Positions 3,843 through 17,145 are shown, counted from the first letter of the stretch. The stretch: DNA of 64,000 nucleotides from Patescibacteria group bacterium (GCA_038061695.1 JBBTYT010000001.1:1339-65338), one strand, 5' to 3'. Program-made: numbers and translations. The notes: generated from the letters alone by a model not told the origin.

Positions 3843-4922
3843 ATGAAACTAAACTTAAATTCAAAAATAGATTTTTTAAGTATTTTTCGTGAACATACAT
3901 TTTTAGGTGTTGATATAGGCACATCATCAATAAAAATAGTTCAGCTTACCAGGAGCGGATTAAAATATAAACTTGATACTTATGGTGAAATTCATTTTTT
4001 TTCAAAAAATGAGAATAAAGAATCAGGAGATTCATTAAAAATGTTGGATAATGATGTTGCCTTTTTATTAAAAAAGATAATATTAGAGTCTGGTGCAAAG
4101 GCAAAGAGAGTGGTTATGAGTGTTCCTATATTCTCATCTTTCTCAATCATTATAGATATGCCTGATTTACCAAGAAATGAATTGACAAAAGCTATAGAAT
4201 TCCAAGCTAGACAATATGTCCCGATTCCTGTTAATCAAGTTGTTTTGAGTTATAATATTATAGGAAGAAAAGAGAATGCATCCGGTAATAATATATTACA
4301 GATTCTTTTAGTGGCGATACCGAATGAAGTAAGAGATAAATATTTTAATATAGCAAATATAGCAGGTGTCAAACTTGTATCTTTGGAGGTGGAAACGCTT
4401 CCAATGGTGCGGTCTGTTCTTAAAAATCTTAAAGAGACAGTCATGATAATTGATTTGGGTTTAAAGTCTACTAATTTTTGTATAGTAGATAACGGTGTTG
4501 TGAGATTATCTCATAATTACGATATATCAGGCAGTTCTATAACGCAAGCATTTTTAGGTTTTTCAGGTGGAGATTATAAGAAGGCGGAAAGTCTTAAAAA
4601 AACGATGGGTTTAAATATGACGCCCGGACAAAAAGAGATGGCAAGAGATGTTTTTCATACTATAAATATTATTACAGCAGAAGCAGATAGAATTATGAGC
4701 AGTTATTTTAATAAGTCTAATGTTAGAATGGAAAAGATTATTTTAAGTGGAGGCTCTGCTAATATGTTTGGCCTCAAGGAATATTTTGCAGATAGATTAA
4801 ATTTAGAGGTCGTTGTTGTTGATCCATTTTCAGGTATTATCTATCCAAAAGAATTAGAGAATATTTTGAAAGATATAGGTCCATCTTTTGCTATTGCCTT
4901 AGGACTTGCGATGCGGAAATAG
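3843..4922 (+). CDS. pilM: Type IV pilus assembly protein PilM (actin-like ATPase)
   Basis: LGVDIGTSSIKIVQL phosphate-1 motif; about 360 aa; followed by pilN/pilO-like genes. Confidence 0.75.
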   Translation: MKLNLNSKIDFLSIFREHTFLGVDIGTSSIKIVQLTRSGLKYKLDTYGEIHFFSKNENKESGDSLKMLDNDVAFLLKKIILESGAKAKRVVMSVPIFSSFSIIIDMPDLPRNELTKAIEFQARQYVPIPVNQVVLSYNIIGRKENASGNNILQILLVAIPNEVRDKYFNIANIAGVKLVSLEVETLPMVRSVLKNLKETVMIIDLGLKSTNFCIVDNGVVRLSHNYDISGSSITQAFLGFSGGDYKKAESLKKTMGLNMTPGQKEMARDVFHTINIITAEADRIMSSYFNKSNVRMEKIILSGGSANMFGLKEYFADRLNLEVVVVDPFSGIIYPKELENILKDIGPSFAIALGLAMRK

Positions 4923-5026
4923 GTTTTAGGTGCTAGGAATTTTTTATTTTGAATATATATTGTTAATGTAGTATAATTAAAAAGTTAAAACATAAAAGCT
5001 AACAGCTATAACTTAAAACCTAAAAA

Positions 5027-5551
5027 ATGCCAGATATTTCATTATTACAAAGTGATTACGAAGTGGTTTTGAAGGAAAGTAGAATCCCTAGTATTTTTCT
5101 TACTGTTTCCATAATACTTCTCGTAGTGAGTATAGGTTCATATGTTGGTCTTTTTTTCTATCACGCCACATTAGCTGAGAATTTGAAGCAGGTTTCCATT
5201 GCCATAGAGAGTCTAAGTATTGAAAATGCTTCAAATGAAGCTGGCAGGCTAAGTAAGATGGGCGGTCAATTAGATGTTATTCAATATTTGAGAGAGTTGC
5301 ATACGGATGCGAACGCATCTTTAGCGGTAATTGCAAAATCAGTTCATCCTAAAGTTTATTATAAAGATGCAGATATAAATTTAGTTCAAGGTGAAGCAAA
5401 ATTAACCGGTATTGCTTTGACACCTAAGTCTTTATCAGAGCAAGTGATGATGTATGCCGGAGAGAAGAATATATTAAGCTACGATATTTCCAATATCTCT
5501 TTAGTTAATGATAATGTTAAATTTGAATTAAACTTAAAGATTAAAAAGTAA
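5027..5551 (+). CDS. pilN: PilN-like type IV pilus inner-membrane assembly protein
   Basis: Single N-terminal TM (IFLTVSIILLVVSIGSYVGLFF) followed by a periplasmic region; position after pilM. Confidence 0.5.
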   Translation: MPDISLLQSDYEVVLKESRIPSIFLTVSIILLVVSIGSYVGLFFYHATLAENLKQVSIAIESLSIENASNEAGRLSKMGGQLDVIQYLRELHTDANASLAVIAKSVHPKVYYKDADINLVQGEAKLTGIALTPKSLSEQVMMYAGEKNILSYDISNISLVNDNVKFELNLKIKK

Positions 5552-5557
5552 GTTTTT

Positions 5558-6133
5558 ATGAATAAGGAATACATAACAGGGACAATCTTTCTTATCATCG
5601 CTGTGATTATCTATATTATTTTTATTGAACCAAAATATGCCGAAGTCAAAGTTACAGCAGAGTCTCTTATTGTAAAAAATAATGAGTTTGATGGTTATAG
5701 CGCTTTTATAAAAGATATTGGAAATATAGTTAAAGAATCAGAAGGAGATTTAAAAAGTATTCAAAAAATAGATTCTATCTTACCAGCATCTAAAAATACA
5801 TCTGATGTCCTTGTGAGACTTGATTATATTGCTTCTAGAAATGGACTACTAATGAAGGATGTGAAATTCTCAAATCCGGTGGCAAAATCTCAAAAAACAG
5901 GTAAATACTCAATTATAGATGTTAAGTTGTTTCTTTTAGGATCTTATAATTCATTTTTAAATTTTAGCAAAGATATAAAAAGTAGTAATCCTCTTATGGA
6001 TATAATAGATATCAAATTTTCCAATAATAAAAAAGATGAGGATAGAAACAAAGAGACGAAAGATGAAGTCGGATTATCTTTAGATCCAATTTTTGAATTT
6101 GAGATGAATATAAGTCTTTATTATCAATCTTAA
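5558..6133 (+). CDS. pilO: PilO-like type IV pilus assembly protein
   Basis: N-terminal TM (TIFLIIAVIIYIIFI), coiled-coil-like region, position between pilN and pilB. Confidence 0.45.
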   Translation: MNKEYITGTIFLIIAVIIYIIFIEPKYAEVKVTAESLIVKNNEFDGYSAFIKDIGNIVKESEGDLKSIQKIDSILPASKNTSDVLVRLDYIASRNGLLMKDVKFSNPVAKSQKTGKYSIIDVKLFLLGSYNSFLNFSKDIKSSNPLMDIIDIKFSNNKKDEDRNKETKDEVGLSLDPIFEFEMNISLYYQS

Positions 6134-6135
6134 TT

Positions 6136-6483
6136 ATGAATATTTCAATTAGAAACTTTTTACCGAAAAATGAAAAAACGAAGCAAGATTTAATGACGAT
6201 TATTTTAATAATCTCAACTTTAATAGTTTTTGTTATGATTTATAACTCTTATTTTAAAAAGGCACCCATTATCTCTGTTGTTGATGATGTAAAAAAGACA
6301 TCAGTTGGCGTTATTTCTTCTGCTGAAGCATCAAGGATTATTGTTGATAAAGTGAAAAAAGATATAAAAAGAATACAAGATGAATTAAAAAATCCTTTTT
6401 ACTCCTCTTTAAAAAAATATGAACCTGCAAGCAGTGAGATGGTGAGTCCAGGAAGAGGTAATCCATTCGTTAATACTTTTTAA
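6136..6483 (+). CDS. Small single-pass membrane protein, hypothetical (PilP-position protein)
   Basis: TM LMTIILIISTLIVFVMIY; 2-nt gap from pilO; no recognisable motif. Confidence 0.4.
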   Translation: MNISIRNFLPKNEKTKQDLMTIILIISTLIVFVMIYNSYFKKAPIISVVDDVKKTSVGVISSAEASRIIVDKVKKDIKRIQDELKNPFYSSLKKYEPASSEMVSPGRGNPFVNTF

Positions 6484-6504
6484 ATGATGAATTGATATTT
6501 TTTT

Positions 6505-8214
6505 ATGCAAAAAACACTCATAGATATATTAATAGCTTTAGGCAAAGTATCAGAAAACGATGCTAAGCTTTTAAGGCAAAATTTAACCACCTCTAAAATG
6601 ACAGAGGAGGATTTTTTATTGACTAAGTTTTCGGAAGATATTATTTTTAATGCAAAAAGTAAGTTTTACGGAGTACCACTTAAAGAGATAGCCGAAGATT
6701 ATCGCATTACAAGTTGGGCTTTATCTCAAATCCCGGAAGAAACGGCAAAGACATATAAATTCATACCGCTTAAGAAAGAGGGGTCACTTTTGGAATTAGG
6801 TATGGTTCATCCGCAAGATATGATGGCATCAGATGCTGTGAAATTTATTTTAACAAGTAAAAATCTCAATGCTAATATTTTTTTAATAACGAATACTCAA
6901 TTTGACTCTCTATTTAAACAATACTCTGCTATTGGAGTTAAAGTGCAAGAGGCTATTTCAGAAATTCAAGAAGATGTGGTTCCTGAGATAAAAATCAATT
7001 CGGACGATGGTAGTAAAATTCTTGCGGAGGCCCCAATAAATAAAATAGTCAATGTGATTTTTAAACATGCTTATGAAGGAGGAGCATCCGATATACATAT
7101 TGAGCCGATTGATGATAATACGCGTATAAGATTTAGAGTTGATGGTGTGTTGCACGCATCTTTATACTTGCCAAAGGAGACTCACAGCGCCATAGTTTCT
7201 AAGATTAAGATATTATCAAATCTTAAGATAGATGAATCAAGAATACCTCAGGATGGAAGATTTAGACAGATAATGTATGATCATCCAGTGGATTTTCGTG
7301 TTTCAACATTTCCAACCACTTCAGGAGAAAAGGTTGTTATTCGTATTTTAGATTCATATTCTGGATTAAAGAAAATAGAAGATCTTGGTTTTGTTGGTTA
7401 TTCTTACGATAAGATAATGGAAGCTCTAAAAAGACCATTTGGTATGGTTCTTACAACCGGACCCACCGGTTCAGGAAAATCTACAACACTACAATCAATG
7501 CTCGGTATTTTAAATAAAGAAGAGGTTAATGTGGTAAGCTTAGAGGATCCTGTAGAATATTACATATCAGGAGTTAATCAATCTCAAGTAAGACCTGAGA
7601 TCCAATATACCTTTGCTTCAGGCTTAAGGAGTATATTGCGTCAAGATCCGAATGTTATTATGGTTGGTGAGATAAGAGATAAAGAGACAGCTAACCTAGC
7701 TACTCATGCCGCACTTACAGGGCATATAGTTTTGTCAACAATTCATACGAATGATGCCCTTGGTGTAATACCCAGGCTTATTGATATGGGCGTGGAGTCA
7801 TTTTTGTTGCCACCGGCATTGAATTTAGTTATAGCGCAAAGATTAGTAAAAAAATTATGTGTCTCTTGTAAAACTACATATAAGCCTGAAGGTAGAGCAA
7901 GGGAAATATTAAATGAGGTTATATTGGGGATGCCTAAGTTTTTACAAGATGAATTAAATAAAAATGAAGTAAATATATGTCAAGCTAAAGGGTGTCCAAA
8001 GTGCTCCGGTAAAGGGACGAAGGGGAGAATAGTTATTTTTGAAGTTATAGAGATGACAAAGGAGTTAAGGGATATAATAATAAATGGACAATTTAACGCA
8101 AAGATTGAAGAGGAAACTAAAAGACAGAATATGATAACGATGAAACAAGATGGTATTATTAAGGTGTTAAAAGGTATTATTTCGCTAGAAGATGTTGTAC
8201 AAGCAACAGTTTAG
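6505..8214 (+). CDS. pilB: Type IV pilus assembly ATPase PilB (GspE family)
   Basis: N-terminal GspE_N-like region, Walker A GPTGSGKSTTL, Asp box, His box and a CxxC...CxxC tetracysteine (CVSCK...CPKCSGKG). Confidence 0.85.
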   Translation: MQKTLIDILIALGKVSENDAKLLRQNLTTSKMTEEDFLLTKFSEDIIFNAKSKFYGVPLKEIAEDYRITSWALSQIPEETAKTYKFIPLKKEGSLLELGMVHPQDMMASDAVKFILTSKNLNANIFLITNTQFDSLFKQYSAIGVKVQEAISEIQEDVVPEIKINSDDGSKILAEAPINKIVNVIFKHAYEGGASDIHIEPIDDNTRIRFRVDGVLHASLYLPKETHSAIVSKIKILSNLKIDESRIPQDGRFRQIMYDHPVDFRVSTFPTTSGEKVVIRILDSYSGLKKIEDLGFVGYSYDKIMEALKRPFGMVLTTGPTGSGKSTTLQSMLGILNKEEVNVVSLEDPVEYYISGVNQSQVRPEIQYTFASGLRSILRQDPNVIMVGEIRDKETANLATHAALTGHIVLSTIHTNDALGVIPRLIDMGVESFLLPPALNLVIAQRLVKKLCVSCKTTYKPEGRAREILNEVILGMPKFLQDELNKNEVNICQAKGCPKCSGKGTKGRIVIFEVIEMTKELRDIIINGQFNAKIEEETKRQNMITMKQDGIIKVLKGIISLEDVVQATV

Positions 8215-8249
8215 TAGTTTTTAGTATTATAAATATAAAGTTTTAAAAT

Positions 8250-8624
8250 ATGGATAGAAAAAAAATTTTAATAATAGAGGATGATGCTCTTTTGTCCAAT
8301 ATGTATCAGACAAAATTTAATTCTGAAGGATTTTGTATGATAGTGGTTGCTGATGGCGAGTCTGGTATCAAGCTTTTATCAGAAGGTCTTAATCCAAGTA
8401 TGGTGTTGCTTGATATTGTTATGCCAAAAATGGATGGTATAGAGGTTCTTGAAAAAATAAAGCAAATGGAGATATGTAAAGATGTGCCGGTTATAATGTT
8501 AACAAATTTAGGACAGAAGGAGAATATTGATAAAGCTACGAAGTCTGGTGCCGTAGGTTATATTGTAAAGGCGAATTATACGCCATCCGAAGTTGTGAAA
8601 AAAGTTAGAGAAATTATAGGCTAG
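8250..8624 (+). CDS. Single-domain response regulator receiver (CheY-like) embedded between pilB and pilT
   Basis: KILIIEDD acidic pocket, phosphoacceptor in MVLLDIVMPKMDG, TNLGQ, K in GYIVKA; 124 aa with no output domain. Confidence 0.75.
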   Translation: MDRKKILIIEDDALLSNMYQTKFNSEGFCMIVVADGESGIKLLSEGLNPSMVLLDIVMPKMDGIEVLEKIKQMEICKDVPVIMLTNLGQKENIDKATKSGAVGYIVKANYTPSEVVKKVREIIG

Positions 8625-8650
8625 ATTAATTAAATGATTTTTTAAATATT

Positions 8651-9718
8651 ATGAATGATTTAAAAAGAGAATTTGAGGCGTTGCTTTACGAGGTTGTTGC
8701 AAGAAAGGCATCTGATTTACATTTATCAATAGGAAGGAAACCTCAATTTAGAATAGACGGCTCTCTGGTTACTTTTGAAGAGGCGGATATCATAAGTGAA
8801 AAGAAGGGTAATGATTTAATGTCTATTCTTATGAGTGAGAATCAGAAAGAAAGATTTTTGGAAAATAGAGAAATAGATTTTTCATATACAGTTGATGGTA
8901 TAGGAAGATTTCGCGTTAATGTTTTTTTTCAGAGAGGTAATTTTTCAGTAGCCTTAAGACTTATTCCAAGCTCTATACAGACATTGGACGAACTTGGACA
9001 TCCTGATGTTTTGCATGATCTTTTAAAAACTTCACAAGGATTTTTTATTGTTGTCGGTCCTTCAGGTCAAGGTAAATCTACTACGCTCGCATCAATGATA
9101 GATGAAATAAATCATCAAAGGAAAAATCATATAGTTACAATAGAGGATCCGATAGAGTATTTATTTGAAGATATTAAATCAATTATTGATCAGAGGGAGG
9201 TTGGTAATGATACAAAAGGTTTTAATGTGGCATTGCGTTCTGTTTTGCGTCAGGATCCAGATGTTATTATGGTTGGTGAAATGAGGGATTCAGAAACAAT
9301 ATCAGCGGCTATTACCGCTTCGGAAACAGGACATCTTGTTTTTTCAACATTGCATACGAATAATGCTTCACAAACAATAGATAGAATAATAGACTCTTTC
9401 CCACCGGCGCAACAGAGTCAGATAAAGGCTCAACTTGCAGGAACGCTTTTAGGGGTTCTTTCAAAGAGGTTAATTCCAAGGATAGACGGAGGTAGAGTAG
9501 CGGCATTTGAGCTTCTAATAGCAAATTCAGCTGTTAGAAATCTAATTAGAGAAGGAAAGACACATCAAATTGATCTTGTTATTGAAACATCAGCAGATAT
9601 AGGTATGGTATCTTTAAATAAATCGCTTTCTTATCTTGTAAAAAGCGGAATTATTACTATGGAGAACGCCGAGATGCACTCTCTTAACCCAGTGGAATTA
9701 AGGATGCTTATTAAATAG
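8651..9718 (+). CDS. pilT: Twitching motility/retraction ATPase PilT
   Basis: Walker A GPSGQGKSTTL; 355 aa; lacks a GspE_N domain; AIRNLIREGK motif typical of PilT. Confidence 0.8.
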   Translation: MNDLKREFEALLYEVVARKASDLHLSIGRKPQFRIDGSLVTFEEADIISEKKGNDLMSILMSENQKERFLENREIDFSYTVDGIGRFRVNVFFQRGNFSVALRLIPSSIQTLDELGHPDVLHDLLKTSQGFFIVVGPSGQGKSTTLASMIDEINHQRKNHIVTIEDPIEYLFEDIKSIIDQREVGNDTKGFNVALRSVLRQDPDVIMVGEMRDSETISAAITASETGHLVFSTLHTNNASQTIDRIIDSFPPAQQSQIKAQLAGTLLGVLSKRLIPRIDGGRVAAFELLIANSAVRNLIREGKTHQIDLVIETSADIGMVSLNKSLSYLVKSGIITMENAEMHSLNPVELRMLIK

Positions 9719-9773
9719 AGGTTTTTAAGTATTAATCTAAAACCTAAAAACTATAACCTAAGACCTAGAAAAA

Positions 9774-10979
9774 ATGTTATTTAAATACGAAGCAAAAACA
9801 TATCAAGGTGAAACAAAGAATGGGACGATTGAAGCATCATCACAGAGTATTGCTGTTGACATACTACAAAAAAGCGATTTAATACTTCTTGATATTGTTG
9901 AGGCGTCAGATATTTCATTAGCTACAAAAAAGCTTAAGTTTTTTGAACATATTCCAAAGAAAGAAGTTTTTATGTTTTCTCGCCAGCTTTCTGTTTTATT
10001 TGAAGCTAAGGTTCCTGTTGTGGAATCTTTACGCACAATGATTGATCAAACAAGAAGCGTAGCATTTAAAGAGATTTTGGAAAAAGTAACAAAGAGCGTT
10101 AATGATGGAAATCCTTTATCAAAATCTTTTGCAGAACATAAAAAAGTTTTTTCTGATTTTTATATAAGCATTGTGAAGTCTGGTGAGCTTTCAGGAAATC
10201 TTGAAACCGTTTTCTCTTATTTAGCCGAGTCTCTTGAAAGAGATTATTATTTAACACAAAAAGTCAGAGGCGCAATGATTTATCCCGCATTTATTATATT
10301 TGCAATGATTGCCGTTACATTTGTGATGATGATTTGGGTTATTCCTAATCTTACTTCTGTTTTTACAGAATCAAATATGGAGTTGCCTTTTTTAACTCAA
10401 ATTATAGTTAATATATCAGATGTATTTCAAGAGTTTTGGTGGTTAATACTTTTTGTTTTGGTTGGTGGAGCGACTGGTTTTTGGCAGTGGGTATCAACTG
10501 AAAATGGTAAAATGATCTGGGGCTCAATCCAGCTTGAAATACCAGTTTTTGGCGAGATTTTAACAAAATTTTATCTTGCAAGATTCTCAGATTCTTTAAG
10601 CACATTAATAGTCGGTGGATTGCCAATTGTAAAATCACTAGAGACTTCTGCTGATGTCGTAGGTAATTATACATATAAAAAAATCTTAAGAGAGACTATT
10701 GATGTTGTAAAAAAAGGAGGAACTATAAGTTCAGTTTTTAGAAGATATAAAGAAGTTCCAATTATGGTTACTCAAATGATTTCAATAGGTGAGCAAGCAG
10801 GTAAGCTGGATGGCACATTGAAGACAATTTCTAAATTTTATAGCAAGGAAGTTGAGAGTGCTATGGATAATATGGTGACATTAATAGAGCCATTACTTAT
10901 TTTGGTGTTAGGAACAGGAGTAGGAATATTGATAGTCGCAATTTTAATGCCGATGTATAATCTTACCGCCGCTATATAG
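9774..10979 (+). CDS. pilC: Type IV pilus platform protein PilC (GspF family)
   Basis: 401 aa with duplicated GspF-like halves, three TM segments, C-terminal ILMPMYNL. Confidence 0.8.
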   Translation: MLFKYEAKTYQGETKNGTIEASSQSIAVDILQKSDLILLDIVEASDISLATKKLKFFEHIPKKEVFMFSRQLSVLFEAKVPVVESLRTMIDQTRSVAFKEILEKVTKSVNDGNPLSKSFAEHKKVFSDFYISIVKSGELSGNLETVFSYLAESLERDYYLTQKVRGAMIYPAFIIFAMIAVTFVMMIWVIPNLTSVFTESNMELPFLTQIIVNISDVFQEFWWLILFVLVGGATGFWQWVSTENGKMIWGSIQLEIPVFGEILTKFYLARFSDSLSTLIVGGLPIVKSLETSADVVGNYTYKKILRETIDVVKKGGTISSVFRRYKEVPIMVTQMISIGEQAGKLDGTLKTISKFYSKEVESAMDNMVTLIEPLLILVLGTGVGILIVAILMPMYNLTAAI

Positions 10980-11020
10980 TTTTTAGGTTATAGTTGCTAG
11001 GTTTTAGTTGTTAAAAATTT

Positions 11021-11389
11021 ATGGTTAAAATTAACTCTTATAAAGATTTAATCGTATGGCAAAGGTCTATGCAATTAGTTGAAAATATTTATAAAATAAC
11101 TGAGAAATTTCCCAAAGAAGAAATTTATGGTCTGACTGCGCAAATGAGAAGATCTGCCGTATCAATTCCTTCAAACATAGCAGAAGGAAGTTGTAGGGGA
11201 ACAAGAAAGGATTACGCGCAATTTTTAAGAATGGCATATGGATCTGGCGCTGAGCTTGAAACACAAATAGAGATAGCAAAAAGATTACTAGGAAAACAAA
11301 AAATTGATTATTCTGACGTTGATAAATTTTTAGATGAAGTAATGAAGATGCTTAATTCTTTAATAAAAAGACTAACCACCAACATCTAA
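11021..11389 (+). CDS. Four-helix-bundle protein (TIGR02436 / 23S rRNA intervening-sequence protein family)
   Basis: YKDLIVWQRSMQLVENIYKIT...EEIYGLTAQMRRSAVSIPSNIAEGSCRG...AYGSGAELETQIEIA is a near-textbook match to the family consensus. The gene is flanked by inverted repeats 10981-11012 and 11388-11424. Confidence 0.85.
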   Translation: MVKINSYKDLIVWQRSMQLVENIYKITEKFPKEEIYGLTAQMRRSAVSIPSNIAEGSCRGTRKDYAQFLRMAYGSGAELETQIEIAKRLLGKQKIDYSDVDKFLDEVMKMLNSLIKRLTTNI

Positions 11390-11542
11390 CAACTAAAACC
11401 TAGAACCTAAAATCTAGCACCTAGTGAAAGAGTTATTCACAGCTGTATTCAATTTAAAGTTGTTAAAATAAATATTTACTTGTATAATATATGAATATGA
11501 TAAATAAATAATTTATTCAAGGTCGAAAGTTAATCAAATCTT

Positions 11543-12052
11543 ATGAGCCACTTAAGCTTAGGGCTTATGAGAATATTAAAGAAAATTATGAAAAGAAATC
11601 AAAAAGGTTTTACGCTTATCGAACTTTTAGTCGTTATCGCTATTATCGGTATATTGTCTTCTATCGTTTTAGTCTCTTTGAATACTGCCAGAGTAAAAGC
11701 TAGAGATGCTAAGAGAACAGCGGATATGCAAGCAATTTCTACAGCTCAGGTTTTATTTGCTGATTCTCAGACAGCATTTAGATATGTAGCAGTTTCAGCT
11801 GCCGCTTGTACTGGCTGGGATGGTGTTAATTGTCCTCTTGTTACAGACGGAGTTCCAGCATTTTCTACTCTTATGCCAGTATTACCTGTTAATCCTTCAG
11901 CAACAGGACTTTATCATTATAAGAATGTTGGTTCTGATTCTACATATTGTGTAGCGGCTGATTTAGAGTCACCTGCTGGAGATGCATTTGTTTGTACTTC
12001 TGTGCGTTGCGCTAAGTTAACTGTTGTATCTACTGCTTGTGTAGAACAGTAA
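11543..12052 (+). CDS. Type IV major pilin (class III signal peptide; prepilin)
   Basis: Leader ...KRNQKG then FTLIELLVVIAIIGILSSIV (G-1, F+1, E+5). Followed by a strong rho-independent terminator. Confidence 0.85.
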   Translation: MSHLSLGLMRILKKIMKRNQKGFTLIELLVVIAIIGILSSIVLVSLNTARVKARDAKRTADMQAISTAQVLFADSQTAFRYVAVSAAACTGWDGVNCPLVTDGVPAFSTLMPVLPVNPSATGLYHYKNVGSDSTYCVAADLESPAGDAFVCTSVRCAKLTVVSTACVEQ

Positions 12053-12080
12053 TTTAGATTCTATTTAATTTAAAATAAAA

Positions 12081-12118
12081 ATTAGCGCACAATATTGTGT
12101 GCTAATTTTTATTTTTTT
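12081..12118 (+). terminator. Rho-independent terminator after the major pilin gene
   Basis: Perfect hairpin TTAGCGCACAA-TAT-TGTGTGCTAA followed by a T-run. Confidence 0.7.
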
Positions 12119-12168
12119 GGAAGTATGATATAATAAATATATCTTTTAATAAATTTTAATCTTAATTT

Positions 12169-12846
12169 ATGAAATATAATATTTTAAAGATGACATTTTT
12201 AATAACTTCTTTTGCTATGCTTTCATTTGTCGGCGCTATCTTAATTAAAAATTCCTACGCTCAGTGGGTTGGCCCCACTGGCGCGCCTCCATCAAATAAT
12301 ACATTGCCCTCTTTAAATACAGGAATTACAGATCAGATAAAAACAGGCGGTTTAACAGTTGGAAGATTAAACACATCAGGGAATATAACTGCAGGCGGAA
12401 TTATTTGTGATTCTTCGGGGTGTATAAATTCTTCTGCTTTAGAAGCAGATCCAACAGTTCTCGCATCTGTTAAAGATGGAGTATCTTGGGCTGAGCTTGC
12501 AACTGTTCCAGCAGGTTTCTTAGATGGTATTGATAATGTTGGAGCAGTTGTCGCAGAAACAGATCCAACAGTTCTCGCATCTGTTAAAGATGGAGTATCT
12601 TGGGCTGAGCTTGCAACTGTTCCAGCAGGTTTCTTAGATGGTATTGATAATGTTGGAGCAGTTACTCTCAATAGTGTTGGAACTAATGAAGTTATTGATG
12701 GCTCTCTAATGATGTCAGATATGAATGCCACGGTTATTCAGGCTAGAATTTCGGGTACTTGTTTATCAGGTATTTCCGTTGTGAATTCAAATGGAACCGT
12801 TGGTTGTGTAGTGGCTGGTTCATCGGAAGCTGTTTACGCTCCATAA
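12169..12846 (+). CDS. Secreted hypothetical protein containing a perfect 38-aa tandem duplication
   Basis: Signal peptide MTFLITSFAMLSFVGAILI. DPTVLASVKDGVSWAELATVPAGFLDGIDNVGAV occurs twice (nt 12448-12549 and 12562-12663, identical). Minus-strand ORF 12333-12731 is its antisense shadow. Confidence 0.6.
   Translation: MKYNILKMTFLITSFAMLSFVGAILIKNSYAQWVGPTGAPPSNNTLPSLNTGITDQIKTGGLTVGRLNTSGNITAGGIICDSSGCINSSALEADPTVLASVKDGVSWAELATVPAGFLDGIDNVGAVVAETDPTVLASVKDGVSWAELATVPAGFLDGIDNVGAVTLNSVGTNEVIDGSLMMSDMNATVIQARISGTCLSGISVVNSNGTVGCVVAGSSEAVYAP
12448..12663 (+). repeat. Two identical 102-bp copies in direct tandem with a 114-bp period (12-bp spacer)
   Basis: The 102-bp unit GATCCAACAGTTCTCGCATCTG...GTTGGAGCAGTT is repeated with 100 percent identity. 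Confidence 0.85.
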
Positions 12847-12863
12847 TTTTGAATTAGAAGATT

Positions 12864-13553
12864 ATGAAAAAAACAATAATAATAACAATAATATTTATAC
12901 TTATTACTATAGTTGTTTTTTCTATTTTGTACTTTTCTTTTTCTTTAAAAAAAGGTGAAGATCTAAGTAATGTTACTACATTAAATGAGAGAGAAATTCA
13001 AAAAAATACTCTTGAGATTATAAAAACAAAAGACTTTTCTCTATGCGAAAATATAAGTGATATTACATATAAATCTGTTTGTATAAATAATATTGCGATG
13101 ATGTTAGCAAAAGAGAGCGGCGATATCTCTTATTGTCAAAAAATGGATGGTAAATTAATAACAACTCAAGAGTGTGAAATACAAACTCTCTCTGTAAAAC
13201 TTTCTGAGAGCGGTGATGCAACCTTATGCGATAAATTCACTAATCAAGTATCTAAAGATGATTGTAAAAATGGTTTTTATTTAAGTGTTTCACAAGAGAA
13301 AGGCGATATTTCTTTATGCAAAAATATAAAAAATAAAACAGATTCAGATTTATGTATTAATTCTTACAATACAAGGAAAGTTTTCTTAAATGATCCGGCT
13401 AACTTTGATTGTTCTTTGATGATTGGTGATGATGCAATATCCGATTGCAAGAAAGTAAAAGATATTATAAGTGATTTTGGTAATAATGTCATTTTGTCGC
13501 CGGATAAATGTTTGCAACTCAAAACATCTTTATTTTCAACTTATTGTATATGA
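12864..13553 (+). CDS. Secreted Cys-rich repeat protein, hypothetical
   Basis: N-terminal TM IIITIIFILITIVVFSILYF; four to five repeats of C-x(10-14)-SGD(I/A)S(Y/L)C. Confidence 0.5.
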   Translation: MKKTIIITIIFILITIVVFSILYFSFSLKKGEDLSNVTTLNEREIQKNTLEIIKTKDFSLCENISDITYKSVCINNIAMMLAKESGDISYCQKMDGKLITTQECEIQTLSVKLSESGDATLCDKFTNQVSKDDCKNGFYLSVSQEKGDISLCKNIKNKTDSDLCINSYNTRKVFLNDPANFDCSLMIGDDAISDCKKVKDIISDFGNNVILSPDKCLQLKTSLFSTYCI

Positions 13554-15070
13554 GATATATTTTTTTATTAATTTTTGCTTTTATATTATCTTCTTTCGGA
13601 ATCAAAGATGTTTTTGCGGCGGAAGGTGATCTTTTGTGGTCAAAAAGCATAGATCAGACATCTAGCCAAGATTCGGCAACAGCTATTGCCGTTGATGCAT
13701 CCGGTATTTATGTTGCCGGGCGTATCCAGAATGTTACTGGCTATGATGCTAAGATAGATAAGTTGTCGCTAGACGGGACAACTGTCATAGCAAGCAGAAT
13801 ACTGAATATAGCAAATCCTTATAGAGCGGAGATCACAGATATAGCTTTAGATGCCACTGGTATATATATATCAGGATATAAGTATGCTTGTTGTCTAGCA
13901 TGGGACCTTGAATGGTTTGTAAAGAAAATATCTTTAGATTTAACAACAGAGATCTGGTCTGATAATCAAAATTATACTGTTGGCGGTAGTACTGAAGATA
14001 CGGCAAATAGCATTGCTGTTGACGCTACTGGTCTTTATGTTGGCGGTTCTATTTTACATGGAGGCGCTGGAAGCAAGTGGCGGTTAGAAAAAAGAAGCTT
14101 AACTACCGGTATTGTCTCGGATTTTGCGATAATAGATGTTGGACCAACCGGTATGTATAATAATCTTAAAAGTATTGATATTGATGCAACAAGTATTTAT
14201 TTAGCTGGTTCTTTTTCTGATTCTTCAAGTAATAAGAATTGGAGGATAGAGAAAAGGGCGATTTCTAACTTAAATACTATTATCTGGGCAAGGAATGTTG
14301 GAACGGGTGCAAATAATATACCTTATAGCATTGCTGTTGATGCTACTGGTGTTTATGTTGGCGGTACTTTTACAACTTGGAATATAAAAAAGCTTTCTAT
14401 TGTTGATGGTACTGTTATTTGGAGTAGAAGTGATTCCACTGTAGTGAACGGCTATCCTGCTAGTATTGATCTTGGAGCACCAGGTAATATCTACTCTATT
14501 GGATATGATATAAAAGTAGGTTCTGATTCTTGGTGGCATTTTGATAAGAGAGATACAAATGGAAATCTTTTGTGGTCGCAAGAAGAAAATCCATCTCTTA
14601 ACTTTGATATTCCATTTGGGGTAGTTATTGATTCTGCAAGCAATGGCATTTATGTAGTTGGCTATGACGCTATTTTAGGAAATGCTAATATTGAGTGGCG
14701 AATAGAGAAGAGAACGCTTTCTCTTATTTGTACTGGTCAAAAAGTATTTGTCTGGACGGATCCTGCTTTAACTGCTGGTCTTACAAAAATAAGAAAGGTT
14801 CATATAGATGAGCTTCGTTCAAATATTAATATTATGCGTTTGGATGCCGGTTTAATAACTTTCTTGTGGACAGATCCTATTATTGCATCAGGAGCTACGA
14901 AGATTAGAGCAACACATATTCAAGAGTTGAGGACAGCTATATTAGATGTTTATACAGCTTGTGGTTCTATAGCGCCGGTCTTTTCTGACGCAACCTTAGT
15001 AGCTGGAACAACAAAAATAAGAAAAGTTCATATAGACGAACTTAGAAGTGCTGTAAATCTTGTTCCGTAA
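13550..15070 (+). CDS. Secreted beta-propeller (SBBP-type repeat) protein with three C-terminal roughly 30-aa repeats
   Basis: Signal peptide. Six or more repeats of (S/A)IAVDATG(I/L/V)YV(A/G)G, the SBBP beta-propeller signature. C-terminal triple repeat WTDPxLxAGxTKIRxxHIxELR. Start chosen at the ATG overlapping the upstream stop (ATGA). Confidence 0.55.
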   Translation: MRYIFLLIFAFILSSFGIKDVFAAEGDLLWSKSIDQTSSQDSATAIAVDASGIYVAGRIQNVTGYDAKIDKLSLDGTTVIASRILNIANPYRAEITDIALDATGIYISGYKYACCLAWDLEWFVKKISLDLTTEIWSDNQNYTVGGSTEDTANSIAVDATGLYVGGSILHGGAGSKWRLEKRSLTTGIVSDFAIIDVGPTGMYNNLKSIDIDATSIYLAGSFSDSSSNKNWRIEKRAISNLNTIIWARNVGTGANNIPYSIAVDATGVYVGGTFTTWNIKKLSIVDGTVIWSRSDSTVVNGYPASIDLGAPGNIYSIGYDIKVGSDSWWHFDKRDTNGNLLWSQEENPSLNFDIPFGVVIDSASNGIYVVGYDAILGNANIEWRIEKRTLSLICTGQKVFVWTDPALTAGLTKIRKVHIDELRSNINIMRLDAGLITFLWTDPIIASGATKIRATHIQELRTAILDVYTACGSIAPVFSDATLVAGTTKIRKVHIDELRSAVNLVP

Positions 15071-15073
15071 TAT

Positions 15074-15847
15074 ATGATATTATTTTTTATATTTTTATTC
15101 GGTCTTATAATCGGTTCTTTTTTGAACGCCGTCATATATCGCCTTGAGGTTGGCGGTTCTTTGGTTACAGAGAGATCTCGCTGTCCGCTTTGTGGAGGTA
15201 CATTAAGCTGGTATGAGCTTATACCTCTTCTATCTTTTTTATTTCAAAAAGGACGCTGTCTTTCTTGCGGTGAGAAGATATCTTGGCAATATCCCATAGT
15301 AGAGCTTTTAACAGGATTTTTATTTCTTTTGACAGCTTTTTTAAAAGAGGGTTCTCTTTTAGATATGACACCAGTAGATATTATATATATTTTTATCGTC
15401 ATGACCTTTTTGGTCTTGATATTTATTTTTGACGGAAAACATTATATAATACCTAATGTAGCTATTTATCCGCTCATTGCTATGTCATTCTTTTACAATA
15501 TATATTCTTTAGGTATTACAGGGCTTTATTACTTTTTAGGAGCATTTATAGCATCGGGGTTTTTTCTTCTGCTTTATCTTATCTCTTCAGGCAAGTGGAT
15601 AGGTATGGGGGATGTAAAGTATGGTGCATTTATGGGTTTTTTCTTACCATGGACGAATGTTCTAGTTGCTCTTTTTATCGCTTATGTTATCGGTGCTATT
15701 TTTGGACTAGCTCTATTGTATTTAAGAAAGAAAGGCTTAAAAAGTGAGATTCCATTCGGTCCATTTTTAATTATAGGGACATTGATAGCATATTTTTTTG
15801 GAACTGATATATTAAGCTGGTATCTAGGCGGAGTTTTTTCTTTTTAG
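15074..15847 (+). CDS. pilD: Prepilin peptidase PilD (A24 family)
   Basis: CPLCGGTLSWYELIPLLSF...GRCLSCGEKISWQYP zinc tetracysteine; polytopic membrane protein; GMGDVKYG catalytic-Asp region. Confidence 0.8.
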   Translation: MILFFIFLFGLIIGSFLNAVIYRLEVGGSLVTERSRCPLCGGTLSWYELIPLLSFLFQKGRCLSCGEKISWQYPIVELLTGFLFLLTAFLKEGSLLDMTPVDIIYIFIVMTFLVLIFIFDGKHYIIPNVAIYPLIAMSFFYNIYSLGITGLYYFLGAFIASGFFLLLYLISSGKWIGMGDVKYGAFMGFFLPWTNVLVALFIAYVIGAIFGLALLYLRKKGLKSEIPFGPFLIIGTLIAYFFGTDILSWYLGGVFSF

Positions 15848-15943
15848 TTGTTAGCTTTTAGAATTAAAATAAAAGAAAAGATAAAAGTGTAAAATGCAAA
15901 GCGAAAAGTTCAAAATAACGACGCAAAATAGAAATAATAAAAT

Positions 15944-16540
15944 ATGCAAAATCTAAAATCTAAAACCTATAACCTAAAACCTAGCGAGGGCTTTACATTG
16001 ATAGAAATTATAATTGCCTCAGCGGTAATAGCTATAGTTTCTATTATAACTGTAGTTAAGGTAGGTACTGGAAATCAGGAACAGGCACTTTTAAGATCTG
16101 CTCAAAAGCTCGCGTTAGATCTAAGGAGGGCTCAAAATTTAGCACTTTCTCCATTAACTACTGATAATTGTGTTTATGGTGTTACAGGAAAAACGACCAG
16201 TTCTGATAGCTATATTCTTTATGTGGCAACTAGCACATGCGACTCTTTTAGTGATAGGAGCTTCCCAAACACCGGCTCTTATAGCGTCTGTAATGTTGAT
16301 GATGGTTGTCTTGGTAGGTATGAATTTGAGGACGGTGTTGTATTACAGACGGGTAATAATTTTGATATTTCATTTCTTCCTCCAGAACCAATATCTCTTT
16401 CTAATGGCAGAACTGCTGGTCCGCCTGGTTCTGCTTTCAATCCTGGAGGAATAGAAACAATCACCATTAGGTTAGCTAATAATATTGCAAGAGAAAAAAA
16501 AGTAGTAGTAAATAAATTTGGAAATATTGAAATACAATAA
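15944..16540 (+). CDS. Minor pilin / pseudopilin (type IV prepilin-like)
   Basis: Leader MQNLKSKTYNLKPSEG then FTLIEIIIASAVIAIVS. The internal ORF 16170-16454 is an artifact. Confidence 0.7.
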   Translation: MQNLKSKTYNLKPSEGFTLIEIIIASAVIAIVSIITVVKVGTGNQEQALLRSAQKLALDLRRAQNLALSPLTTDNCVYGVTGKTTSSDSYILYVATSTCDSFSDRSFPNTGSYSVCNVDDGCLGRYEFEDGVVLQTGNNFDISFLPPEPISLSNGRTAGPPGSAFNPGGIETITIRLANNIAREKKVVVNKFGNIEIQ

Positions 16541-16578
16541 ACGAGGTTTTAGGTTATAGCTTTTAGCTTATAGAATTT

Positions 16579-17145
16579 ATGAAAAAAATTATATTAAAAT
16601 TTAATAAAACTCTAAAACCTAAAACCTATAACCTAAAATCTAATAGGGGTTTTACTATAGTTGAATCCTTGGTTGCTATAACTATTTTGACTGTTGGCGT
16701 GTCAGCCTCAATAGGAGCTATAATGAGCTCTATTCAACTAGTCTCTAAGACAGAAAATAGAACAATAGCTGTTGGTTTGGCGCAAGAGGGTGTTGAGATT
16801 GTAAGAAATATGAGAGATTTAAATTGGATAGATGGCAATACGCCATGGGATTTGGGGTTAACTGATGATATATTAATCAGTGGTGGTTTCAAAACAGGAT
16901 GCGTTGAGTTTGATAGCGTCTCGTTTGATGTTAATTGTGTTGTCGGCACTTCTTATACTATGAAGCTTATTGATAATGCTGGTAATTTATATTACGGACA
17001 TGATCAATTGAGTCCGGCTACTATATTTTCAAGAACGATTACCTTAACAAGGATCAGCGCTGATGAGATTGTAGTGCGATCTTTGGTTGCTTGTGGAGTG
17101 AATTGCAATATTTCTGTAGAGGAACATTTATTTAATTGGCAGTAG
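16579..17145 (+). CDS. Minor pilin / pseudopilin
   Basis: Leader ...LKPKTYNLKSNRG then FTIVESLVAITILTVGVSA. Confidence 0.7.
   Translation: MKKIILKFNKTLKPKTYNLKSNRGFTIVESLVAITILTVGVSASIGAIMSSIQLVSKTENRTIAVGLAQEGVEIVRNMRDLNWIDGNTPWDLGLTDDILISGGFKTGCVEFDSVSFDVNCVVGTSYTMKLIDNAGNLYYGHDQLSPATIFSRTITLTRISADEIVVRSLVACGVNCNISVEEHLFNWQ

Follow-up and report, generated by a model that had tools for sequence, protein, structure and literature searches.

Why does a gene of the S23p family, known from intervening sequences (IVSs) of 23S rRNA, stand between two genes of a pilus cluster, enclosed by inverted repeats? The question arises in a 64,000-nucleotide stretch of DNA from a Patescibacteria group bacterium (GCA_038061695.1, JBBTYT010000001.1:1339-65338), hereafter the window, where a small open reading frame (ORF) for a four-helix-bundle protein lies between pilC and the major pilin gene. 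An earlier reading of the sequence, the original prediction, had placed this gene in a stem inside a pilus mRNA. Our analysis suggests that positions 10980-11431 are probably an IVS-type S23p/four-helix-bundle cassette in a protein-coding operon and not in 23S rRNA; the window holds no rRNA and three tRNAs. As an accessory insertion, the cassette closes the pilB-pilT-pilC unit on its 3' side and comes just before the pilin promoter; it is not a part of a message spanning pilC and pilin as had been supposed.

A four-helix-bundle gene between complementary heptamer arrays

The order pilC, four-helix-bundle ORF, major pilin gene was borne out at the positions originally assigned to them (Table 1). 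The assignment of the ORF to the 23S-IVS family held as well: PF05635 (23S_rRNA_IVP) was matched over its full length (model positions 1-106 of 106) with 130 bits against a curated cut-off of 33.8 bits, and the NCBIfam models TIGR02436 (130 bits; cut-off 24) and NF008911 (149 bits; cut-off 137) were also matched. The nearest solved relative is XCC0516 of Xanthomonas (PDB 2gsc, E 2e-28), and a second one is PDB 2rld (E 2e-5); five chains were deposited for each, and the link to a pentamer is by sequence homology only. The family is very large: of the 8,000 candidates that were scored, over 7,000 reached E <= 1e-20, although even the closest sequence from another organism is only 72% identical. 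The gene represents a strongly conserved subfamily, and its ORF is intact. A second copy, which the original prediction had proposed to look for, was missing from the window: when eight further small ORFs (111-143 aa) were compared with Pfam, none matched PF05635. No defence-system model matched the ORF, and nothing relevant was returned by Rfam for 4800-17000 at E <= 1. A promoter scan of 10800-11700 gave no convincing promoter for the ORF. Four further contigs of the organism, from other samples, were identical to the window at this locus and showed no array-length polymorphism.

Both arms proved to be arrays of tandem heptamers. The left array (TAGTTTT, TAGGTTA, TAGTTGC, TAGGTTT, TAGTTGT) begins on the pilC stop codon itself, at 10977, and not 1 nt past it as had been described. 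The right array (CTAACAA, CTAAAAC, CTAGAAC, CTAAAAT, CTAGCAC, CTAG) begins around the ORF stop codon. It runs from 11381 and has this stop in its first unit. A perfect 16-mer, CTAGGTTTTAGTTGTT, occurs once per strand in the window (10997-11012 and 11388-11403). It had been taken for the outer ends of the arms, but it forms their inner, ORF-proximal ends, from which pairing continues outward; the stem comprises approximately 17 bp, a 7-nt bulge, and then approximately 9 to 13 bp.

A repeat search recovered 51-nt arms (10977-11027 and 11373-11423) with 76% complementarity, and the minimum-free-energy structure of 10975-11430 paired the arms (z -2.2), as the original prediction implied. The arm-against-arm duplex reached -39.9 kcal/mol (z -5.66), which none of 200 dinucleotide shuffles (0/200) equalled, confirming that complementary arms bracket the ORF. 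Since the arms are built in tandem, pairing is possible in several registers. The periodic TAG places a stop codon in every frame at the stem entry, and pilC uses the first one.

Empty, remnant, and differently filled junctions in relatives

We compared the junction with those of four syntenic relatives (L006, L008, L010, and L012), which share the gene order from pilM to gatA and have pilC genes 68-72% identical to that of the window. The four-helix-bundle gene was absent from all four (4/4). In L006, the pilC stop codon runs straight into the box GTTATTCACAG, leaving a clean empty site; because this box directly abuts the L006 pilC stop but sits at 11432-11442 in the window, the insertion can be delimited as 10980-11431. 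L010 has no insert either. L008 carries an insert of approximately 85 nt that shows homology to the arms in the window at its left end, TAGCTTAGGTTATAG, and over its right part, TCTAACAACTATAAACTAAAAC...CACCTAAC; it lacks the gene and the inner left units and keeps inner right-arm units, and, judged by its sequence, it looks like a deletion remnant of a full cassette. The L012 junction (9198-9472) has other arms, (TGATTGA)n and (ACAAATC)n, around approximately 180 nt of noncoding cargo. Presence of the cassette is thus sporadic among close relatives, as it is for 23S IVSs.

No target-site duplication was definable at the L006 and window boundaries. A scan of GTDB genomes with pilC returned a single distant locus at 36% identity, which was of no use for synteny. 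The L012 cargo is richer in GC, contains internal hairpins (fold z -3.2), and has no Rfam match; that it might be a decayed four-helix-bundle gene was considered and rejected, tblastn giving only E >= 0.03 on a tiny database.

A gene-in-a-stem arrangement across the family

To see how far the arrangement extends, we fetched 80 metagenomic loci with homologs 46-68% identical and paired the 90 nt 5' of each ATG with the 90 nt 3' of the stop codon, using dinucleotide shuffles as the reference. Complementary flanks (z <= -3) were found at 30 of the 72 testable loci (42%), with an extreme of z -11, against 2/65 (3%) for neighbouring genes at the same loci; the medians were -2.71 and -0.16, respectively (Mann-Whitney p 5e-11). 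The gene-in-a-stem arrangement noted at the pilus locus is therefore a property of the family. At the significant loci the arms are tandem 7-mers, less often 8-mers, with varying units (TAGGGAA, TAGCTTT, TAGTGGT, TTAGAAGG). TAG is by far the top conserved periodic trinucleotide in the arms, with TAG-to-TAG spacings of 7 nt in 111 cases and 8 nt in 38, versus 6 nt in 3 and 9 nt in 8. When a chain was defined as three or more trinucleotides spaced 7-9 nt apart, TAG chains stood upstream at 36/68 loci and CTA chains downstream at 33/68, whereas chains with reversed polarity numbered 5 and 5, and the background rate was 0.1 per kb.

The placement of the gene is equally consistent. It is co-oriented with both neighbours at 45 of 60 loci, both neighbours being antisense at two; the gaps to neighbouring genes are typically 20-90 nt, and the stop codon of the upstream gene is an array unit at 25/64 loci. 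On three long contigs, the arrangement recurs in a type IV secretion system (T4SS)-like operon, beside a beta-CASP RNase gene, and among histidine kinase genes of Nitrospirae, so that the contexts span unrelated operons in Patescibacteria and Nitrospirae. Of the 79 closest homolog loci scanned, none lay in rRNA (0/79). The operon cassette thus appears to be the usual lifestyle of the family.

Apart from these counts, two orthologous loci (L061 and L063) have genes 95.6% identical in nucleotide sequence and flanks approximately 80% identical on both sides, neither having a significant stem; such a contrast would be expected if the gene were under strong constraint.

A tblastn search of plasmids returned 28 records, mostly from Nostoc, Calothrix, and Anabaena, and ten copies were examined. 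Complementary 7- or 8-mer arrays occurred on both sides in 5/10 of these cyanobacterial and Gemmatimonadota copies, and three more copies had arrays but no inverted pair. On pNPUN01 of N. punctiforme, (TCAGGAG)n and (CTCCTGA)n enclose the gene between hypothetical genes; on pANA02 of Anabaena sp. 90 (L101, 44265-44633), (ACAGGTG)n and (CACCTGT)n do so between cas6 and cas4. The N. edaphicum copy lies antisense between ribonucleotide reductase genes with (GTAGGGA)n and (TCCCTAC)n, that of Nostoc C052 follows a TraM-recognition-domain gene with (GGGAACA)n and (TGTTCCC)n, and that of Geminocystis is flanked by (GGGAAAA)n and (TTTTCCC)n between an AAA ATPase gene and parB. The unannotated Gemmatirosa record has 8-mers, (CTCCTGCC)n, on both sides with no clean inverted pair. 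Pseudanabaena pPg_01 (L100, 46268-46627) again has the gene between cas6 and cas4, with direct, not inverted, arrays, (GCTAAAA)17 and (GCCAAAA)10. Two copies in Nostoc PCC 7120 (L093 on plasmid gamma and L094 on plasmid alpha) lie beside transposase genes with a downstream array only, and a Calothrix PCC 7716 copy, antisense between toxin-secretion genes, has no arrays. The link between gene and arrays reaches well beyond Patescibacteria; the TAG phasing does not.

The downstream array in Nostoc PCC 7120 is (CTTCTGC)n. Both plasmids there encode the identical protein WP_010994075.1, the L093 copy being directly 3' of an ISL3-family transposase gene, so that the insertion sequence may carry the gene as a passenger. 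Placement between cas6 and cas4 in two cyanobacterial CRISPR-Cas operons, with long heptamer arrays on either side, may explain why a large clustering study listed the family as associated with arrays of clustered regularly interspaced short palindromic repeats (CRISPR) (PMC10910872).

Comparison with 23S IVSs and a proposed mechanism

The likeness to the IVSs excised from 23S rRNA by ribonuclease III (RNase III), on which the original prediction had drawn, is supported in size, ORF family, orientation, and the heptamer-built 5' arm. The Coxiella 23S IVS measures 428-444 nt, compared with 444-452 nt here, and carries a sense S23p ORF within a 28-bp terminal stem (Warrier et al. 2016, PMC4990558). 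Just 5' of its ATG stand three tandem heptamers, GACAGAT, and one degenerate copy, in a number that varies by strain, and RNase III cleavage maps inside the stem, where the first repeat begins (PMC4990558). Taken together, the cassette and the IVSs of Coxiella burnetii and Leptospira share a protein family in sense orientation to the host transcript, terminal inverted repeats forming a stem of approximately 28-30 bp, a 5' arm of three to five heptamers ending before the ATG, and a sporadic distribution among relatives.

There are also differences. The host site here is an mRNA junction, from the pilC stop codon to the pilin promoter, and not helix 25 or 45 of 23S rRNA, and the heptamers are TAG-phased and build both arms. 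RNase III cleavage was shown experimentally for the Coxiella and Leptospira IVSs (PMC4990558), whereas for the pilus cassette we infer it. The ORF here is intact and its subfamily strongly conserved, in contrast to the Coxiella ORF, which seems untranslated and decaying (PMC4990558). ORFs of the 23S_rRNA_IVP family have also been reported in some 16S and 23S insertions of the Candidate Phyla Radiation (CPR) (survey, PMC11270868).

These features suggest the following mechanism. The cassette would be transcribed by read-through from its host operon, which would explain the strong bias toward sense orientation; the 45-to-2 bias, together with the lack of a promoter, suggests that expression depends on host read-through. 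In the transcript, the arms would zip into a helix of approximately 30 bp, with the ORF inside and its start codon partly hidden in the helix. Such a helix would be a generic RNase III substrate, cleavage of which would release the ORF RNA as in the Coxiella and Leptospira IVSs, and RNase III processing of the cassette stem would, by analogy, be likely. Slippage of heptamer units probably lengthens and shortens the arms.

Table 1. Positions of the cassette, its neighbours, and related arrays in the window
Feature	Position	Strand	Basis or remark
Marginal gene-less hairpin, just 5' of the ORF starting at 5027	4912-5030	+	Duplex z -1.7; 9/200 shuffles as good
CTA-phased array before the pilC ATG, no convincing partner arm	9737-9767	+	Duplex not significant
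pilC (T2SSF)	9774-10979	+	Pfam T2SSF, E 2e-58; its stop TAG (10977-10979) opens the left heptamer array
Left arm, five TAG-phased tandem heptamers	10977-11013	+	Sequence, repeat search, duplex with right arm
Segment missing from the L006 empty site, approximately 452 nt	10980-11431	+	Whole insertion, from pilC stop codon to conserved box
Four-helix-bundle/S23p gene, 122 aa, full length	11021-11389	+	PF05635 (E 4e-38), NCBIfam models, PDB 2gsc
Right arm, CTA-phased heptamers complementary to left arm	11381-11424	+	ORF stop TAA (11387-11389) inside first unit
Conserved box GTTATTCACAG, right edge of the variable site	11432-11442	+	Common to L006, L008, and L012
Promoter-like site of the pilin gene, TTGTTA-17-TATAAT	11460-11488	+	Promoter scan, 10/12 matches; downstream of cassette; similar site at the matching position in the relatives
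AAGGTCG, conserved, 5' of the pilin-leader hairpin	11519-11525	+	Five-genome alignment
Conserved hairpin in the pilin 5' untranslated region (UUAUGAGCC...GGCUUAUGA)	11541-11570	+	Alignment and consensus fold, five genomes
CTA-phased array coding a minor-pilin leader (MQNLKSKTYNLKPSEGFTLIE; gene 15944-16540)	15948-15983	+	Upstream partner weak; duplex not significant
Gene-less hairpin, arms 16543-16575 and 16610-16642	16543-16642	+	Duplex z -4.89; 0/200 shuffles as good

Alternative explanations

Several results weigh against reading the locus as an RNA-processed cassette of the IVS type. The remaining 58% of homolog loci fell short of z <= -3. Mismatches between the arms were G·U in 62 cases and A·C in 55 (p 0.58), and the lack of a G·U excess means that there is no signature of selection on a sense-RNA helix specifically; the power of this test is limited, because most mismatches are transversions arising from register differences between units. 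Arm sequence tracked protein phylogeny weakly (rho 0.15, Mantel p ~0.04-0.055). Near-identical cassettes in different contexts were not found among 84 loci, the maximum being 76% nucleotide identity. Stop codons of any kind were present in 24/39 arrays against 49% expected from composition, only TAG being enriched. Finally, the precedent of the IVSs cannot be taken as evidence that the protein matters, given the apparent decay and lack of translation of the Coxiella ORF. An insulator of stops in three frames was rejected as the reason for the arrays, since stops in general were not clearly enriched and several cyanobacterial arrays are stop-free; stops in all frames are at most a side benefit of TAG phasing combined with a period not divisible by three.

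The leading alternative is a local one and involves no travelling unit: in this clade, as in cyanobacteria, intergenic heptamer hairpins would arise by slippage at operon junctions, and the gene would merely have lodged or been retained in one of them, for example by recombination between arrays. We regard it as possible, although rather unlikely. It draws on the gene-less arrays of the pilus cluster (Table 1). Decamers like TAGGTTTTAG occur 32 times in the window versus 7.7 expected, a four-fold excess, and nearly all of them fall within 4.9-16.7 kb, where genes of the pilus cluster adjoin one another; since the same heptamer type stands at these junctions without the gene, the arms are not specific to the cassette. 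The strongest gene-less hairpin encloses in its loop only the ATG of a minor pilin (16579; N_methyl motif). Relatives likewise have arrays at many other junctions, with unit sequences that differ from genome to genome, and the L012 junction, with its own arms and noncoding cargo, would fit the same picture, as would the weak correlation between arms and protein. Hairpins of heptamers in the class of short tandemly repeated repetitive (STRR) sequences have in fact been described between cyanobacterial genes, with function unknown (PMC2670836), and arrays of GGGAATC and GGGGAYT are known from Xanthomonas and Nostoc (PMC4692102).

Against a purely local origin, complementarity of the flanks is specific to the four-helix-bundle gene when set beside neighbouring genes, and TAG phasing recurs across phyla around the subfamily. 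L008 kept its inner right-arm units and lost their left partners, which fits deletion from a full cassette better. The STRR and GGGAATC-type repeats resemble the arms in being intergenic tandem 7-nt units in operons, capable of forming hairpins and variable in copy number; the difference is that complementary arrays bracket a four-helix-bundle gene here and on plasmids of Nostoc, Anabaena, and Geminocystis. We found no paper tying heptamer arrays to non-rRNA four-helix-bundle genes, and the two studies cited for such repeats (PMC2670836, PMC4692102) do not mention these genes. In keeping with the IVS-type cassette, the gene-less arrays of the pilus cluster may be derivatives or relatives of its arms.

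Arrays of this kind also gave rise to two resemblances that were set aside. The right arm as a decayed pilin leader was dropped, the resemblance being visual alone, and a 17-nt identity between 16540-16556 of the window and the left arm of another locus (L098) was judged not significant because GGTTTTAGGT arrays are so common.

A second alternative moves the function of the repeats from RNA to DNA. The cassette would be a foldback element resembling a miniature inverted-repeat transposable element (MITE), the arms being terminal repeats that form single-stranded DNA hairpins or cruciforms and the RNA stem having no function. We consider this unlikely, although presence-absence polymorphism at a precise site, unrelated insertion contexts, and gene-less copies would all be expected of it, the lack of a G·U bias is what DNA-level repeats would give, and there is a long-standing suspicion that IVSs are mobile or were left behind by transposition (PMC4990558). 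The cassette, however, neither contains nor adjoins a transposase or recombinase, no catalytic motif is known for the protein family, the arms have no conserved sequence beyond TAG and the period, no target-site duplication is definable, no recent copies were found, and the 45-to-2 sense bias points to dependence on host transcription. The suggestion that the cassette is a mobile or hitchhiking element stands in part: a discrete accessory cassette or hitchhiker is supported by the relatives without it and by the empty site, but no near-identical copies were found in differing contexts that would attest to current mobility.

Known elements offer partial parallels to such a foldback structure. 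Like the repetitive extragenic palindromic (REP) doublets, or REPINs, associated with RAYT genes (PMC3116915), the inverted repeats flank a gene and also occur without one in intergenic regions; RAYT, however, is an HUH transposase that recognises a defined repeat, whereas the protein here lacks any known catalytic motif and conservation in its arms is limited to TAG and the period. The gene-less arrays also bring other miniature elements to mind. Correia elements, also called Neisseria miniature insertion sequences (NEMIS), and enterobacterial repetitive intergenic consensus (ERIC) elements are hairpins cotranscribed with the genes around them; RNase III cleaves those of the Correia type. Foldback transposons of Drosophila have long terminal inverted repeats of short tandem units, and most copies have no internal gene; being eukaryotic, with other unit sizes and no homology, they serve as an analogy alone.

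A transcription terminator or attenuator at the end of the pilC operon is very improbable. A strong stem does follow immediately on the pilC stop and precede the pilin promoter. However, it has a loop of approximately 370 nt and no T-run, the scan of 10800-11700 gave no terminator-like sites, and the relatives do without it. The same comparison bears on the proposal that the stem separates the pilT-pilC message from the pilin message. The pilin gene, next after the cassette, has the N_methyl motif (Pfam), with its likely start at ATG 11588-11590 (MKRNQKGFTLIELL), and the signals that precede it are kept in relatives irrespective of the insert: the box GTTATTCACAG in 3/4, and the promoter-like site and 5' hairpin in 4/4. 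With expression signals of its own, the pilin gene does not require a stem that would divide the two messages.

The pilin leader merits description in its own right. AAGGTCG followed by the hairpin YCAURAGCC ... GGCUUAUGR is conserved in all five genomes (window, 11519-11590; L006, 9280-9349; L008, 9362-9440; L010, 9285-9345; L012, 9540-9600). Nine pairs are kept in each sequence, four of them with one-sided wobble changes. The leader has no Rfam match and may be a regulatory element.

A remnant of a diversity-generating retroelement (DGR), with the ORF as its Avd accessory protein, deserves hardly any credence: the fold family is shared (PMC10053308), but the matches to bAvd (29.6 bits) and NF033474 (25 bits) lie far below the cut-offs of 40 and 80 bits, the neighbours are pilus genes, and there is no reverse transcriptase, no template or variable repeat, and no match to a defence-system model.

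Implications for the family

For 30 years no function has been assigned to the very large S23p/IVS family, and the location from which it takes its name appears to be exceptional. The build common to its members, a sense promoterless gene with inverted arms of tandem heptamers inserted between operon genes, bears on what IVSs are, on what STRR-type heptamer arrays are for, and on whether passengers excisable by RNase III punctuate operon mRNAs. It offers a general, testable pattern linking IVSs, four-helix-bundle genes, and bacterial heptamer arrays, and the filled, empty, and remnant sites at the pilC-pilin junction provide ready-made natural pairs for experiments.

A bolder generalization, which we hold to be a long shot, would regard S23p cassettes as a widespread but so far unrecognised class of promoterless foldback gene cassettes in operons, with the rRNA IVS as a special case. 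An Avd-like pentamer would bind its own arrays, at approximately five units per arm, for RNA processing or mobilisation, and gene-less hairpins, such as the STRR type and the minor-pilin leader arrays, would be nonautonomous derivatives.

Array-coded pilin leaders and other observations

Some arrays in the pilus cluster are translated. The right arm of the strongest gene-less hairpin codes for part of a minor-pilin leader peptide (TLKPKTYNLKS; MKKIILKFNKTLKPKTYNLKSNRGFTIVE). Coding arrays avoid an in-frame TAA by means of the variant unit CTATAAC, and the left arm of this hairpin carries GGTTATAG, which matches the variant. Minor-pilin leaders are extended by translated arrays in the window (15944-15990 and 16579-16650), in L008 (12987-13070), and in L012 (12399-12500 and 13095-13140), one example being NLKSKTYNLKPSEG|FTLIE; the L006 orthologs have short leaders free of arrays. 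As 7 cannot be divided by 3, adding or removing a single unit of a coding array would shift the reading frame, and the arrays that code for leaders could act as phase-variation switches.

Among the arrays at operon junctions of the relatives, those of L010 lie at 11934-11965, 12627-12654, and 16411-16444 and those of L012 at 6633-6675 and 7956-8002; in L012, a complementary pair brackets the entire pilT gene. Their units are specific to each genome (TAGATCT/TAAATCT and ATGAATT/AATTCAT).

Just downstream of the pilin gene, the ORF at 12169-12846 encodes a protein with no Pfam match. Within it, at 12441-12663, a 114-nt unit is tandemly duplicated with 99% identity and encodes ETDPTVLASVKDGVSWAELATVPAGFLDGIDNVGAV twice.

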